DNA from: Escherichia phage JLBYU37
Strand: one strand, 5' to 3'
Sequence record: NC_073054.1
DNA length: 45,011 nucleotides
The position numbers and the translations under genes are program-made. Positions 4,342 to 9,281 of this stretch are shown piece after piece. Under the pieces are notes generated by a model. It searched no databases. It was not told the DNA's origin and was given only the letters and a program-made list of their open reading frames with translations. Numbering within the stretch: the first letter of the stretch is position 1; every line of letters starts with the position of its first letter.

Positions 4342-5766
4342 ATGGCACGTTTCCGACGTCGCGAATATCAGAAGTTGATAACCGCGTTCATCCTCAAGCA
4401 TAAGCGCTGCAATATTTGGGCGACAATGGGGTCGGGTAAAACCGGCGCGACCATGTGGGCGCTGAATAAAATGTTCCAGACTGGCATCCTGTCCGACCAG
4501 GATGACCGCGTACTGGTGCTGGCCCCGCTGCGCGTTGCGTCCGGTACATGGCCCCCGGAACAGGAGAAATGGCGCTTCCCAGCCTTGCTGGTAGTAGACG
4601 GCACTGGGCCAGAGAAGGACCGCATCGCTGCGCTTGAGAGCGACGCTAACGTGGTTTGTATTAACTATGATGTAGTTGAGTGGCTTGTTGAGTATTGCGG
4701 CGACGAGTGGCCCTTTACGGTCGTGGTTGCCGATGAATCCACTAAGCTGAAAGGCTATAGAAGCAAGCAGGGAAGTAAGCGCGCCCGTGCGCTGGCAGCG
4801 ATCGCACATAAGCACGTCAAGCGCTGGATTAACCTGACTGGCACACCCGCACCAAACGGACTGAAAGACCTGTGGGGTCAGACGTGGTTTGTCGACGGTG
4901 GCGAACGCCTCGGCAGTAGTTATAAGGCATTCACAGACCGCTGGTTTATTAGCAAGCCGGTTAAGCCTGGCAGCTTCACGACGCAGCACGCCCCGCTTAA
5001 GAACTCCGAGAAAGAAATACAACAACGACTGTCCGACGTGTCGCTAACCGTTGATGCGGCTGAATACTTCGGGTGTGACAAGCCAATCTATACGCCGGTT
5101 GTTGTGGACCTGCCGAAAAAAGCACGCAAGATTTATGACCAATTCGAAGCGGAGCTATTTGCCGAACTGGAAAGCGGAACGGTGGAGGCGGCGAACGCTG
5201 CTTCGAAGACTATTAAGGGCCTTCAGCTTGCTTCCGGGGCCGTGTATAAGGTCGACGAAGACGGCGAGCGCACCGACGAATGGGTGAAAATTCACGACGC
5301 TAAACTGGACGCGCTGGAAAGTATCGTGGAGGAGTTGAACGGCGCACCGTTGCTCGTTGCCTACCAGTACAAGCATGATCTGGCACGTCTCAAGAAGAAA
5401 TTCCCGCACGGCGTTGCGTTGGGTAAAGGTAAGCAGGGCAATAAGGATATGGAAGCGTGGAACAGGGGCGAGATCCCCATCATGTTTGCACACCCGGCAT
5501 CGGCAGGTCACGGCCTTAACTTGCAGGATGGAGGACACCACCTTGCTATCTTTTCCGACACCTGGAACTATGAGCACTTTGCGCAGATCGTGGAGCGTAT
5601 CGGGCCTGTCCGCCAGATGCAAGCCGGGCACCCTCGTCCAGTATTCGTCTACATTATCCAGGCGCGCGGCACACTGGATGAACTGGTCGCCGAACGTCGC
5701 GACAGCAAGCGTGATATTCAGGACGACTTGATGGAATACATGAAAGCTAAAAAGGCGCGCAAATGA
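4342..5766 (+). CDS. SNF2/DEAD-like superfamily 2 helicase
   Basis: Track ORF 4252-5766; likely start ATG 4342 (MARFRRREYQ) with AGGCGGA RBS. Walker A-like MGSGKTG, motif II ADEST, C-terminal helicase domain. Confidence 0.85.
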   Translation: MARFRRREYQKLITAFILKHKRCNIWATMGSGKTGATMWALNKMFQTGILSDQDDRVLVLAPLRVASGTWPPEQEKWRFPALLVVDGTGPEKDRIAALESDANVVCINYDVVEWLVEYCGDEWPFTVVVADESTKLKGYRSKQGSKRARALAAIAHKHVKRWINLTGTPAPNGLKDLWGQTWFVDGGERLGSSYKAFTDRWFISKPVKPGSFTTQHAPLKNSEKEIQQRLSDVSLTVDAAEYFGCDKPIYTPVVVDLPKKARKIYDQFEAELFAELESGTVEAANAASKTIKGLQLASGAVYKVDEDGERTDEWVKIHDAKLDALESIVEELNGAPLLVAYQYKHDLARLKKKFPHGVALGKGKQGNKDMEAWNRGEIPIMFAHPASAGHGLNLQDGGHHLAIFSDTWNYEHFAQIVERIGPVRQMQAGHPRPVFVYIIQARGTLDELVAERRDSKRDIQDDLMEYMKAKKARK

Positions 5767-6458
5767 TAATCTGGTCATTGTTTGACGGCAGCGGCTTGAT
5801 GATTGAGCGTGCTGCCGAGATGGGGCATAAGTGCTACTGTTTTAACTACTCCGAAGCTGATCACGGGTCATACCTTGACTACCGGATTTATGGTCGCGGG
5901 ATCCGGTATCGCAATGAGTTTATCGATCTGGACTTCGTGGACCGAGCGATGAATGGCGATTTCGGTACGCCGGATATCATTTATGCTTTCCCCCCGTGTA
6001 CGGATCTGGCAGTGAGCGGCGCGCCAGCTTTCCCGCGCAAGCGTGCTAAAGACCCGGCCTTCCAGCTTAAGGCGGTGCGCACCGCGAAGATCGCAGCTTA
6101 CCTGGGTGACTTCTTCGAAGTGCCGTATATGATTGAGAATCCGCGCAGTGTGCTTTCCACACAGTGGCGTAAGCCAGACCACTCGTTTGATCCGTGGGAG
6201 TATGGCGGCTATCTGCCGGAGGATGACGTGCACCCGTTGTTCCCGGAATACATCAACGCGCGCGATTCATATCCGAAGCGGACCTGCTTATGGACCGGCA
6301 ACGGCTTTCGTATGCCAGAGAAAAAGCCTGTATTCGTTGAAAAAGGGTACTCGAAGCAGTATAGTCGCCTCGGAGGCAAATCAGCCCGCACAAAATTAAT
6401 CCGGTCGCTCACTCCGCGCGGCTTCGCGATAGCGGTTAACGAGGAAAATTTAAAATGA
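5763..6458 (+). CDS. short C5-cytosine DNA methyltransferase-like protein
   Basis: 231 aa; motif I FDGSG, motif IV FPPCTDLAVSG (PC dipeptide), ENP near motif VI; too short for a normal target-recognition domain. ATGA overlap with the helicase stop. Confidence 0.55.
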   Translation: MIIWSLFDGSGLMIERAAEMGHKCYCFNYSEADHGSYLDYRIYGRGIRYRNEFIDLDFVDRAMNGDFGTPDIIYAFPPCTDLAVSGAPAFPRKRAKDPAFQLKAVRTAKIAAYLGDFFEVPYMIENPRSVLSTQWRKPDHSFDPWEYGGYLPEDDVHPLFPEYINARDSYPKRTCLWTGNGFRMPEKKPVFVEKGYSKQYSRLGGKSARTKLIRSLTPRGFAIAVNEENLK

Positions 6459-6772
6459 CATTCGAAGCCATCGATTTTTCGGTTGCAATGACTAACCAGT
6501 TATTCTCCTACGACAGCAAAACCGGCGTCATTCGTCTGAAGTCCACCGGCTGCAAAATTGGCAACCTCAATACCGCCGATGGCGGAACACGTATCGAATA
6601 CAACGGCAAGACGCTGTCTGGCGCACGCGTGGCGTGGATTATTGAGACGGGCAATACAATCCCTCCAGGCTTCGCAGTTGTGTGCCGCCAGCGCACTCCA
6701 GGGCACTACGGCAACCGCATAAGCAACCTTTACCTGGTAGACGTCGCACGCGACCCGAACTTTTATGCGTAA
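6455..6772 (+). CDS. HNH_3-like protein with degenerate catalytic residues
   Basis: 105 aa; FSYDSKTGVIRL...YNGKTLSGARVAWIIETGNTIPPGF...NLYLV matches HNH_3 architecture but the HNH histidines are replaced (VVCRQRTPGHYGNRISNLYL). Confidence 0.5.
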   Translation: MTFEAIDFSVAMTNQLFSYDSKTGVIRLKSTGCKIGNLNTADGGTRIEYNGKTLSGARVAWIIETGNTIPPGFAVVCRQRTPGHYGNRISNLYLVDVARDPNFYA

Positions 6773-6773
6773 A

Positions 6774-6805
6774 TTGGTTGCATAATCATATTGGTTGCAC
6801 TATCT
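6774..6805 (+). promoter_or_regulatory. sigma70-like promoter built on two direct TTGGTTGCA copies
   Basis: TTGGTTGCA at 6774-6782 and 6791-6799; TTGCAT (6777-6782) N17 TATCTT (6800-6805). Feeds gene 6856. Confidence 0.45.
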
Positions 6806-6808
6806 TAA

Positions 6809-6838
6809 GGGTGTCCGGTTTGGACGCCCTTTTTTTTT
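6809..6838 (+). terminator. rho-independent terminator
   Basis: GGGTGTCC-ggtt-GGACGCCC hairpin followed by nine T. Confidence 0.7.
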
Positions 6839-6855
6839 AATATGAGGATTTGACG

Positions 6856-7098
6856 ATGAAACGATTCTTTTTAGATTACGACGGTGATTTGCGGTTATGG
6901 GTGTGCATGGTGCTGTTCTTATTCTTTTGTCTCCTGCTGCCGATTTCCTGCACGTATAACCTCGATAAATATGAATGCCGTATTGTCTACGCAGAACTAA
7001 CAGGTCGTAACACCCAGTGGCGCTATGGCACTTGCTGGGTTGAAATGGATGGCAAATTTATACCACGCAAAGAAATTCGCATGACGGAGATTAAATAA
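6856..7098 (+). CDS. small cysteine-containing membrane/secreted protein (80 aa)
   Basis: ATG 6856 with GAGGA 8 nt upstream; hydrophobic segment LWVCMVLFLFFCLLLPISC; four Cys. Confidence 0.5.
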   Translation: MKRFFLDYDGDLRLWVCMVLFLFFCLLLPISCTYNLDKYECRIVYAELTGRNTQWRYGTCWVEMDGKFIPRKEIRMTEIK

Positions 7099-7556
7099 TG
7101 AAAATTTTACAAGAAGAGAAAGCGTATTGGGTAGCACAGTGTCTTGAAGCCCGCGAGAAAGCGGAAGGAGCTACCGCGCTGGCAAATACCTACCTGGCTA
7201 GCTATGAAGAAGAAGAGAAGGTCCGAAAGGAATTAGAGGAACGCTTCGAACTGCTGGGCGAACTGATTACCATTATGCAGCGCACCGGATACACAACATC
7301 CGTATCGCTCACCCGGCTAACTGCCGATGGTCTGCGTGAGCATTGCAAACGTGCCGAGGAGTACGTCCGTCCGAAGGGCAGCCAGTCTTCGATCCCGCGG
7401 AAAGGACTGGTGCGTATAGCGTGGCGTGCAAACGGCAGCTACTATTCCGATAGCCGACCGCTCAGTAGGGCGGAGCTATCCCGAGTCCAACGCGTGCTAT
7501 CCGGTGGCAAGAAAACCGCCCTGTATGCGATAGATCCCGACTATGACGGAGAATGA
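7098..7556 (+). CDS. hypothetical protein (152 aa)
   Basis: Start overlaps the previous stop (TAATG); N-terminal helical E/K-rich region; no recognised motif. Confidence 0.5.
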   Translation: MKILQEEKAYWVAQCLEAREKAEGATALANTYLASYEEEEKVRKELEERFELLGELITIMQRTGYTTSVSLTRLTADGLREHCKRAEEYVRPKGSQSSIPRKGLVRIAWRANGSYYSDSRPLSRAELSRVQRVLSGGKKTALYAIDPDYDGE

Positions 7557-8052
7557 GCAGAAGGATAGCTGGCGCACGCCGCCAGCTTTATTTAAGCCAC
7601 TGCGCAAGGCGTTTAAATTCCGCTACGACATGGCGGCGAGCGACCACAACCATCTATTACCGCGCTACTTCACGAAAGAGCACAGCGCGCTTGATGCTGA
7701 CTGGTCAGAGTTAACAGGGTGGAAGTGGTGCAATCCTCCGTATTCCGACCCGCTGCCGTGGGTGACTTGCGCATCGCGGGGGCGTAAGACGGTAATGTTG
7801 CTCAACCAGGATACGACCACGAAGTGGGCCAAACTGGCAAGGCAAACCGCCAACCTGATTATTTTGCTGGACTGGCGGATCCGGTTTATACACGCCGTCA
7901 CCGGTAAGGTCGGGCCGAGTAACAACAAGTGCCAGCAATTGATAATCTTTGAAGAAGTGCCGCCAAACGGAAGCGCACAAATCGAAATAATGAGCGAAGG
8001 TGAATTAAATGAATATCTTAGTCGTCGATCGAAGTCCTCGCGTTGTGGATGA
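7543..8052 (+). CDS. phage Dam-type N6-adenine DNA methyltransferase
   Basis: 169 aa; WRTPPALF N-terminus and catalytic CNPPYSD motif. Confidence 0.7.
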   Translation: MTENEQKDSWRTPPALFKPLRKAFKFRYDMAASDHNHLLPRYFTKEHSALDADWSELTGWKWCNPPYSDPLPWVTCASRGRKTVMLLNQDTTTKWAKLARQTANLIILLDWRIRFIHAVTGKVGPSNNKCQQLIIFEEVPPNGSAQIEIMSEGELNEYLSRRSKSSRCG

Positions 8053-8230
8053 AATAATTAAACGCTACCAGGTTTTCCCTGGAAATAAAGTAAGGCGCGC
8101 AAGCCAACCTCATCAATTGCTGGGCCTTGACCTAACTGGCTGGCTTGTCATGACGGCGCGTTGCCATCTTGTGTGCGACGCATTCTCGGCCCGTATTGTA
8201 CGTGAAAATTTAATGGCGGAATTAAAATGA
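8009..8230 (+). CDS. small hypothetical protein (73 aa)
   Basis: GAAGGTGA RBS 5 nt upstream of ATG 8009; overlaps the Dam 3' end; stop coupled to the next ATG (ATGA). Confidence 0.35.
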   Translation: MNILVVDRSPRVVDEIIKRYQVFPGNKVRRASQPHQLLGLDLTGWLVMTARCHLVCDAFSARIVRENLMAELK

Positions 8231-8697
8231 AACTACTGATTTGCGATTTGGATGGCGTTATTAACGGTTCAAGCGATGCGCGTGCCGACCTGGTGCCGGG
8301 GATAAAAACGAAATCAACCTTTTGGGTAAAGTGGCACAAAGCGCACGTTCGCGAAGACCTGAACATGGATATGCTGCCGCTACTGCGCATGTATCAAGAG
8401 CAAGGCTTCGAGATCGCGTATCTGACAAACCGGCAGCGCGAATGCTGGGACACCACCGCCGAGCAATTGGAAGTATTCCCCGTAGGGCGGTTGTTTATGC
8501 GCCACATGCTGGACGACACCCCGCCGCCAGAGTTTAAGGCGTGCGCCGTGTTCAAAATGGTCTGCTACGCGGACGTGTCAGAACTGGTCATCATTGAAGA
8601 CTGCCCGAAGAACATTGCAGCTATCCGTCGGGCGTGTAGCGATTTGGTCCCGAATATTTACGCAATAAACGTTGCGAAATTCACTTGCAACCAATAG
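8227..8697 (+). CDS. HAD-superfamily phosphatase-like protein
   Basis: 156 aa; N-terminal LICDLDGVIN resembles HAD motif I (DxDG). Confidence 0.5.
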   Translation: MKLLICDLDGVINGSSDARADLVPGIKTKSTFWVKWHKAHVREDLNMDMLPLLRMYQEQGFEIAYLTNRQRECWDTTAEQLEVFPVGRLFMRHMLDDTPPPEFKACAVFKMVCYADVSELVIIEDCPKNIAAIRRACSDLVPNIYAINVAKFTCNQ

Positions 8698-8714
8698 GTT
8701 GGTTGCACTATAGT
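8685..8714 (+). promoter_or_regulatory. palindromic operator TGCAACCAA-tagg-TTGGTTGCA overlapping a promoter
   Basis: Perfect 9-bp inverted repeat 8686-8694 / 8699-8707; TTGCAA (8685-8690) N18 TATAGT (8709-8714); upstream of gene 8760. Confidence 0.45.
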
Positions 8715-8759
8715 TAACGCGTCGGGGCGATATGGCCCCTAACTAAAAAGGACCACATA

Positions 8760-9281
8760 ATGAAAGCATACGAATACTGCAAAAACGCCGCCACCACTAT
8801 GGAACAGCGCGGAAAAGAAAACGGCTATGACAACGCGAAAGAGGAACGCAGCGCGAAACAAATTGCCGCCGTGTTTAACGCGCTTACCGGTCGCGACCTT
8901 ACCGAGCAAGAAGCCTGGACCTTCTTGATCTGCCTGAAGCTGGTGCGCCAGCACCGTAAGCACCAGGAAGACAATATCGTCGACCTGGTGGCGTATGCGG
9001 CCTTGCTGGGCGAGTCTTACATGACCGTGCATGATGAGATTCAGGTCGATACAACGGCAGCGCAATACGACAGCCTTAAAGGCTGGCCCATCGCCACCGG
9101 CGGAACGTGGCATCCTTCGTCATCGGCAGGCAAGACTGTCAAAGCCGCCAATTTCGGCGTAGCGGCCCAGGACGTCCAGCCTATGGTCGTGCTCACGGGC
9201 GAAGACGGATCGAAAATCCTCATGACGCCGGAAGATTTCCGCAACATGGAAAAAACACTGGTGACTGGCGCACTGAAATAA
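8760..9281 (+). CDS. hypothetical protein (173 aa) with a conserved phage alpha-helical N-terminal domain
   Basis: AAGGA RBS; signature IAAVFNALTGRDLTEQEAWTFLICLKLVRQ...DNIVDLVAYAAL recalled as a widespread phage domain, family not confirmed. Confidence 0.5.
   Translation: MKAYEYCKNAATTMEQRGKENGYDNAKEERSAKQIAAVFNALTGRDLTEQEAWTFLICLKLVRQHRKHQEDNIVDLVAYAALLGESYMTVHDEIQVDTTAAQYDSLKGWPIATGGTWHPSSSAGKTVKAANFGVAAQDVQPMVVLTGEDGSKILMTPEDFRNMEKTLVTGALK

Follow-up and report, generated by a model that had tools for sequence, protein, structure and literature searches.

A compact Dcm-like methyltransferase gene and its degenerate HNH-like neighbor in the genome of Escherichia phage JLBYU37

The one tested relative of the cytosine methyltransferase gene that is the subject of this study is the 711-bp dcm gene of phage K42. 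Every mutation in the K42 mutants that escaped retron Ec86 lay in that gene, and K42 Dcm expressed alone from pBAD was toxic only when the retron was present. The enzyme raised the level of 5-methylcytosine (5mC) in the multicopy single-stranded DNA (msDNA), as judged by LC-MS (liquid chromatography coupled to mass spectrometry), and a C82A/E128A/K175A/K176A mutant was inert. K42 is 95.4% identical to phage KarlJaspers (Bas06) (all from bioRxiv 10.1101/2023.08.16.553469). The homologous gene examined here is located in Escherichia phage JLBYU37 (NC_073054.1; the window analyzed is the whole stretch of 45,011 nucleotides). It encodes a protein of 231 residues, overlaps a gene for a 105-residue HNH-like protein (positions 5763-6772 for the pair), and is followed at some distance by a Dam-type gene.

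An earlier note, made from the letters of the window, had taken the 231-residue protein to be truncated and the 105-residue protein to be its possible specificity partner or decoy, and had combined both with Dam into an anti-restriction or unconventional modification module. The reading that we favor, and hold to be probable, features a compact Dcm that is active and stands alone, a separate Dam, and a nuclease-dead HNH-like protein tied to the helicase module.

Positions 5000-9000 of the window matched 156 phage records, nearly all of them Dhillonvirus (HK578-like E. coli siphoviruses). The closest nucleotide relatives in this region were SECphi4 (91.4% identity) and bob (90.9%), whose records label the three genes Dcm (or C-5 cytosine methylase), putative HNH endonuclease, and DNA N-6-adenine methyltransferase, respectively. 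JLBYU37 is thus a Dhillonvirus genome, and the locus is the standard DNA-modification region of that genus, the arrangement of which was already known and widely annotated. All three genes are conserved in more than 150 Dhillonvirus genomes, and all are under purifying selection according to the ratio of nonsynonymous to synonymous substitution rates (dN/dS), which was calculated across six Dhillonviruses.

The 231-residue methyltransferase

The methylase was matched over its full length to bas06_0055 of Bas06 (BLASTP; 54% identity over 230 residues, E 3e-87). The Bas06 accession (GenBank MZ501090) was taken from the BASEL supplement; bas06_0055 is a 711-bp gene whose 236-residue product has exactly the residues C82, E128, K175, and K176. 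The first three of these K42 positions correspond to C79, E125, and K172 in the JLBYU37 methylase, and K176 is conservatively replaced by R173. Given the 54% identity to K42/Bas06 Dcm, the methylase therefore falls in a family that has a biochemically active, partner-independent representative.

The protein also matched phrog_757, “DNA methyltransferase” (E 8e-83), and about 2,900 homologues were found among 5.8 billion proteins. Homologues among the matches listed were 225-250 residues long, apart from a few shorter entries, and the 231-residue methylase is therefore of full length. Its dN/dS (0.037) was as low as that of the adjacent helicase (0.035). Both results contradict the description of the methylase as truncated. 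A decaying pseudogene, whether for dcm or for the HNH-like gene, was ruled out by dN/dS. By tblastn, the family was detected in 1,510 phage records; Dhillonvirus, Drexlerviridae, Vequintavirinae, and 9NA-like phages are among them.

An alignment of 117 family members was used to examine the motifs. In motif I (F7-D8-G9-S10-G11), F7, G9, S10, and G11 were at least 90% conserved, with G9-S10-G11 nearly invariant. Motif IV (P77-P78-C79), motif VI (E125-N126-P127), and K172 were invariant, K172-R173 being the equivalent of K175/K176 in K42 Dcm. A C-terminal fused motif IX/X, R214-S-L-T-P-R-G-F, was invariant or nearly so. The retention of motifs I, IV (PPC), and ENP that the earlier note had reported was thus borne out across the family.

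The AlphaFold model of the methylase was confident (predicted local distance difference test, pLDDT, 90.8), and the catalytic domains of DNMT3A/B ranked at the top of its Foldseek matches; the model has the fold of a C5-methyltransferase catalytic domain. It has no separate target-recognition domain (TRD) between motifs VIII and IX. At that position are about 28 mostly coil residues (ca. 180-207), bounded by a strand (174-179) and a helix (208-214), and the earlier assertion that the protein has no room for a TRD of canonical size is therefore correct. The 231-residue protein is related to the C5 methyltransferases, has kept the catalytic motifs intact, and lacks such a TRD.

In a split two-subunit C5 methyltransferase of the M.AquI type, a second polypeptide carries the remainder of the TRD and motifs IX-X. 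That arrangement was considered and ruled out: the motif IX/X-like RSLTPRGFAxAV is located inside the 231-residue protein, and the 105-residue protein has only HNH_3 homology.

The HNH-like protein and the gene it accompanies

The features of the locus are as follows.

4342..5766, + strand: SNF2-family DNA helicase, which opens the coupled run helicase-dcm-HNH-like (Pfam SNF2-rel_dom, E 4.6e-11; phrog_62, E 6e-156)
5763..6458, + strand: compact Dcm-like C5-cytosine DNA methyltransferase, 231 residues, full length for its family (phrog_757 and motifs)
6455..6772, + strand: catalytically degenerate protein resembling HNH_3 and the N-terminal part of I-HmuI, 105 residues, the final gene of the unit (phrog_99)
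6807..6840, + strand: intrinsic-terminator-like hairpin (11-bp stem with 6 GC pairs, then a T run) that closes the helicase-dcm-HNH-like unit
7543..8052, + strand: Dam-type N6-adenine DNA methyltransferase, 169 residues, in the next transcription unit (Pfam PF05869)

The coordinates of dcm, the HNH-like gene, and dam (5763-6458, 6455-6772, and 7543-8052) were confirmed in the list of open reading frames (ORFs). The mechanical ORF of the helicase begins at GTG 4252; ATG 4342 (M31) matches the starts of the eiAU orthologue and of annotated Dhillonvirus orthologues and yields a protein of 474 residues. The helicase is 70% identical to that of Edwardsiella phage eiAU, in an alignment that begins at M31. 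The stop of dcm and the start of the HNH-like gene overlap in ATGA, with GAGG about 10 nt upstream, and the same overlap joins the helicase stop to the dcm start. The ORFs, motifs, and ATGA overlaps described in the earlier note, including the translational coupling of the 105-residue gene to the methylase gene, were all found in place. The dcm/HNH-like coupling is kept in Dhillonviruses, and a terminator is annotated in phage WF5505 at the place equivalent to the 6807-6840 hairpin. Because of the ATGA overlaps and the hairpin and T run that follow the HNH-like gene, the helicase, dcm, and HNH-like genes are regarded as the tail of one transcription unit. This unit sits at the end of the replication module, and dam is placed in the next transcription unit.

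The 105-residue protein matched phrog_99, “HNH endonuclease” (E 2.6e-16), a match that shows homology only. On Pfam HNH_3 (PF13392), it scored 13.2 bits, below the cutoff of 24.8. The canonical HNH_3 pattern is AHR...DH...DNR...NLR...SENxxN; in the clade of the 105-residue protein it reads GAR...VC...GHYGNR...NLY, and then the protein ends. Where beta-1 ends, V76-C77 occupy the place of the catalytic Asp-His. That the catalytic histidines of an HNH_3-like protein are replaced had been recognized in the earlier note and is upheld here, with D-H changed to V-C and AHR to GAR. Cys77 is conserved in eiAU and in another relative (P0126). The AlphaFold model (pLDDT 87.9) features a beta-sheet and a beta-hairpin without a terminal helix; the metal-binding alpha-helix of the beta-beta-alpha-metal motif is missing, since strand 92-96 leads into coil and the chain ends with residue 105. 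The only Foldseek match with a probability above 0.3 was I-HmuI (1u3e; probability 0.99, E 0.012, TM 0.50, 86 columns), and the matched portion is the N-terminal part of that enzyme. The gene had a dN/dS of 0.11. The protein is a domesticated, nuclease-dead remnant of a homing endonuclease of the I-HmuI/HNH_3 type, and we regard it as functional and almost certainly non-nucleolytic.

Cys77 and GHY are also present in eiAU and in a metagenomic relative, from which we take the degenerate state to be old. In two other relatives (P0132 and P0133), two copies of the domain stand in tandem, a degenerate HNH_3-like one at the N-terminus and then a canonical one that has the D-H. Nuclease-dead copies thus turn up repeatedly, and they might work as modules for DNA binding or dimer mimicry.

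The HNH-like gene was found in 160 phage records, as opposed to the 1,510 that carry the methylase family; apart from four Edwardsiella phages of the eiAU type, all 160 were annotated as Dhillonvirus or had genomes of Dhillonvirus-like size. Its family formed five clusters among 5.8 billion proteins and had 17 representatives among 1.8 billion. Outside Dhillonvirus, the gene is limited to eiAU and a few metagenomic phages, and a search of IMG/VR and a metagenome collection for further lineages of the degenerate protein returned only Dhillonviruses and eiAU. Conversely, more than 1,300 phage genomes with the compact methylase lack an HNH-like homologue altogether. In Bas06, no annotated or Pfam-detectable HNH-like gene adjoins dcm; other small genes adjoin it there and in atuna.

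Several gene orders separate the two genes. In eiAU, the order is helicase, HNH-like gene, a 330-residue PF00145 methylase, and Dam. BLASTP between that methylase and the compact Dcm gave no significant match, and hhalign with the family profile gave just 28 columns at a probability of 1%. Because neither method found real similarity, the two are regarded as different subfamilies, not orthologues. On one metagenomic contig (L009), the HNH-like gene directly follows the C-terminus of the helicase, and this dcm is absent; on another (L010), the helicase is followed by DUF7167 and then by the HNH-like gene, with no methylase nearby. A distant HNH-like relative (P0137) was found on short contigs that carry neither helicase nor methylase. 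Two of the 34 tabulated Dhillonvirus loci, both from Shigella phages, have an intact HNH-like gene without a working dcm. In phage 1b (L011 2989-3174), an in-frame deletion in dcm has removed residues 12-181; in phage EP23 (L021 4951-5010), a deletion joins the 3' end of the helicase gene to the last ca. 17 nt of dcm and leaves the HNH-like gene its Shine-Dalgarno site and start codon; the expression signals of that gene are kept in 1b as well. The two deletions arose independently.

Given the gene orders in eiAU, L009, L010, EP23, and 1b, the constant neighbor of the HNH-like gene is the SNF2 helicase, and dcm behaves like a dispensable cassette in the slot between them. The function of the 105-residue protein would accordingly go with the helicase module instead of the methylase, probably as an accessory factor that binds DNA or protein. 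That it is a dedicated accessory subunit of the helicase (e.g. for targeting or loading on DNA structures or sites), with the dcm cassette repeatedly inserted and deleted between the two genes, is a tentative and rather doubtful proposal.

These distributions bear directly on the partnership proposed in the earlier note, in which a short methylase without its own sequence recognition would obtain specificity from the coupled HNH-like protein, as a two-subunit methylase, or in which that protein would act as a decoy. The conserved ATGA coupling, the short stretch at the TRD position, the match of the 105-residue fold to the DNA-contacting N-terminal domain of I-HmuI, and the fact that the HNH-like gene of eiAU again adjoins a C5 methylase would all suit such a pair. 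The eiAU methylase, however, is full-size and unrelated in sequence, and the coupling is not specific to the dcm/HNH-like pair, because the helicase and dcm genes are coupled by the same overlap. The disparity between 160 and 1,510 records, the ability of K42 Dcm to work alone, the helicase-linked relatives without a methylase, and the persistence of the HNH-like gene in EP23 and 1b after the loss of dcm all argue against partner and decoy alike, and we consider either role very improbable. It is scarcely credible that the 231-residue protein is an inactive fossil, or that it acts on something other than DNA (e.g. as a DNMT2-like tRNA enzyme or another transferase, such as a carboxymethyl transferase): its catalytic motifs are invariant across the 117 relatives, it is under very strong purifying selection, and the K42 homologue yields 5mC in DNA by LC-MS in a manner dependent on C82/E128/K175/K176. 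The fold and the biochemistry of the homologue indicate a C5 DNA methylase, not a member of a non-methyltransferase Rossmann family, which the earlier note had named as a possible outcome.

The 105-residue protein might instead be a still-active homing or nicking endonuclease that employs the non-canonical Cys77, His84, and Asp100, and its gene a selfish element beside dcm. Many records annotate its homologues as HNH or homing endonucleases, His84, Asn91, and Asp100 are invariant in the degenerate clade, and a block of complete nucleotide identity with phage bob extends across the gene, as gene conversion might yield. However, the D-H pair has lost its metal-binding Asp as well as its general-base His, and the protein lacks the beta-beta-alpha-metal helix and every C-terminal DNA-binding module. 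The gene is found at one fixed locus in all Dhillonviruses examined and in eiAU, unlike sporadic mobile homing genes, and its dN/dS suits a host-beneficial protein. An active endonuclease is thus improbable.

Proposed function, Dam, and neighboring features

We propose that the 231-residue enzyme is a stand-alone DNA cytosine-C5 methyltransferase, dependent on S-adenosylmethionine (SAM) and presumably active in JLBYU37. By the established chemistry of C5 methyltransferases, a flipped-out cytosine would be attacked at C6 by Cys79 (motif IV) and protonated at N3 by Glu125 (motif VI), with SAM as the methyl donor. K172/R173 would touch the substrate, and the loop of ca. 28 residues would take the place of a full TRD. 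The enzyme would methylate phage DNA after replication; its probable target lies at or near CCWGG, which has been proposed for the K42/Bas06 homologue. Such methylation would guard against cognate type II restriction enzymes, at the cost of rendering the phage visible to methylation-sensing defenses, e.g. retron Eco1/Ec86. Dam would independently add N6-methyladenine. The activity and specificity of the JLBYU37 methylase, its anti-restriction role, and the biochemical role proposed for the HNH-like protein are all inferred. In published work on Druantia, Retron-Eco2, Retron-Eco7, Retron-Eco11, and Danish wastewater, nothing was found on the specificity of the JLBYU37 methylase.

Several points weigh against this reading. 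The activity of the JLBYU37 methylase would be an extrapolation from the K42 enzyme, with which it shares 54% identity. The comparison with Pfam suggested in the earlier note had a mixed outcome: the methylase had no match at E<=1, and thus falls under the PF00145 gathering threshold, and the HNH_3 score of the 105-residue protein was below threshold as well; matches to PF00145 at E<=1 were obtained for 70 of the 117 methylase relatives (best, 1.3e-6). The methylase likewise had no match in NCBIfam and no sequence match in the PDB, and a PDB search with the family profile found nothing. The CCWGG specificity of K42 Dcm was assumed from E. coli Dcm, with mutation of the msDNA site as its sole support (bioRxiv 10.1101/2023.08.16.553469); the true specificity may differ from CCWGG because a dcm+ host did not trigger the retron. 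According to the BASEL data, Dhillonviruses remain sensitive to the restriction-modification systems tested, so that any anti-restriction benefit is site-specific at best. The degenerate clade has kept His84 and Asp100, so that some residual chemistry of the 105-residue protein is conceivable, with Asp100 perhaps a leftover ligand, and a loose functional link between it and a methylase is conceivable because its gene adjoins a C5 methylase gene in both Dhillonvirus and eiAU.

Dam scored 127.1 bits on PF05869 (cutoff 28.1; E 7.1e-37), matched phrog_111 (E 6.6e-53), and has an NPPY motif (N64-P65-P66-Y67, read from the translation), in agreement with the earlier assignment of a Dam-type methyltransferase to 7543-8052. 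On TIGR01712, it scored 87.9 bits, under the equivalog cutoff of 97.05. The dN/dS of dam was 0.09, and two allele classes, of 169 and 161 residues, are present in the genus. Judged by its sequence, the 169-residue protein is an ordinary phage orphan Dam and a bona fide PF05869 enzyme. The presence of two orphan methylases supports the compatibility of the locus with anti-restriction; this much of the module envisaged in the earlier note stands, and the truncated methylase with a specificity partner does not.

Across the genome, neither CCWGG (158 observed, 169 expected) nor GATC (163 observed, 204 expected) is strongly avoided. This lack of strong avoidance fits methylation protection and is not informative on specificity. 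CTAG is strongly rarer than expected in the whole genome (18 vs. 52), CCCGGG is absent (0 vs. 7.9), and GGCC is present at 0.69 of expectation.

Nucleotide identity to phage bob is 100% across a block (6124-6724) that runs through the 3' half of dcm into the HNH-like gene, most of which it includes; identity in the flanks is 89-96%, and in the Dam region just 62-87%. The block is typical recombination mosaicism. A 152-residue ORF upstream of dam (7098-7556, +) is named “DNA ligase” by way of phrog_10530 (E 5e-84); it has no Pfam match and is far below the size of a ligase, and one GenBank record itself states “no evidence” for the label, which is probably an annotation artefact. Between dam and a HAD phosphatase/PNK-like gene (8227-8697) is a 73-residue ORF (8009-8230, +). 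Ksap1 is a 74-residue Dhillonvirus protein that activates the NLR-like defense KpAvs2 (PMC11564622); the ORF is its putative counterpart, to judge by size and synteny.

Implications and comparison with known systems

For annotation, the dcm gene should be described as encoding a compact Dcm-family C5 DNA methyltransferase, neither truncated nor a pseudogene, and the 105-residue gene ought not to be labeled HNH or homing endonuclease. The presence of dcm predicts sensitivity of JLBYU37 to methylation-sensing defenses such as retron Eco1/Ec86, and that of dam predicts sensitivity to Dam-sensing retrons such as Sen2 (cited in PMC12640716). That dcm was deleted twice, independently, among Shigella Dhillonviruses suggests that this cost is a real one in nature. 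In having lost dcm, EP23 and 1b are reminiscent of the escape mutants that retron Ec86 selects.

The Dam enzymes of T1 and 933W-type phages are GATC-specific. JLBYU37 Dam resembles the phage Dam family (PF05869/TIGR01712) in its strong Pfam match and NPPY motif, and differs in that it falls below the TIGR01712 equivalog cutoff.

With I-HmuI and HNH_3, the 105-residue protein shares the N-terminal beta-sheet and beta-hairpin (1u3e; 86 columns, 23% identity) and the signature YD..TG ... RVAW ... NL. It differs in the change of D-H to V-C and of the His of “AHR” to Ala, in the loss of the helix with the metal-binding Asn and of the NUMOD/helix-turn-helix DNA-binding modules, and in the fixed genomic position and purifying selection of its gene.

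The TRD of canonical C5 methyltransferases comprises roughly 80 residues. Compared to those enzymes (PF00145: M.HhaI, M.HaeIII, E. coli Dcm), the 231-residue methylase is about 100 residues shorter, has ca. 28 residues in place of the TRD, and has PPC-T instead of PCQ in motif IV and ENP instead of ENV in motif VI. Its closest structural analogues are the catalytic domains of DNMT3A and DNMT3B, which also have minimal TRDs; the identity to them is 13-16%, however, and DNMT3 enzymes work as oligomers with DNMT3L and regulatory domains. That the compact Dcm family would comprise the smallest natural DNA C5 methyltransferases is, taken jointly with the helicase-accessory reading of the HNH-like protein, a speculation that we consider unlikely to hold as a whole.

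The K42/Bas06 Dcm belongs to the same family and the same size class (236 vs. 231 residues), and both genes sit close to an SNF2-type helicase gene within the replication module. The K42/Bas06 gene, however, is upstream of the helicase, with two small genes between, whereas dcm of JLBYU37 is downstream of the helicase and translationally coupled to it, and K176 of the former enzyme is Arg173 in the latter.

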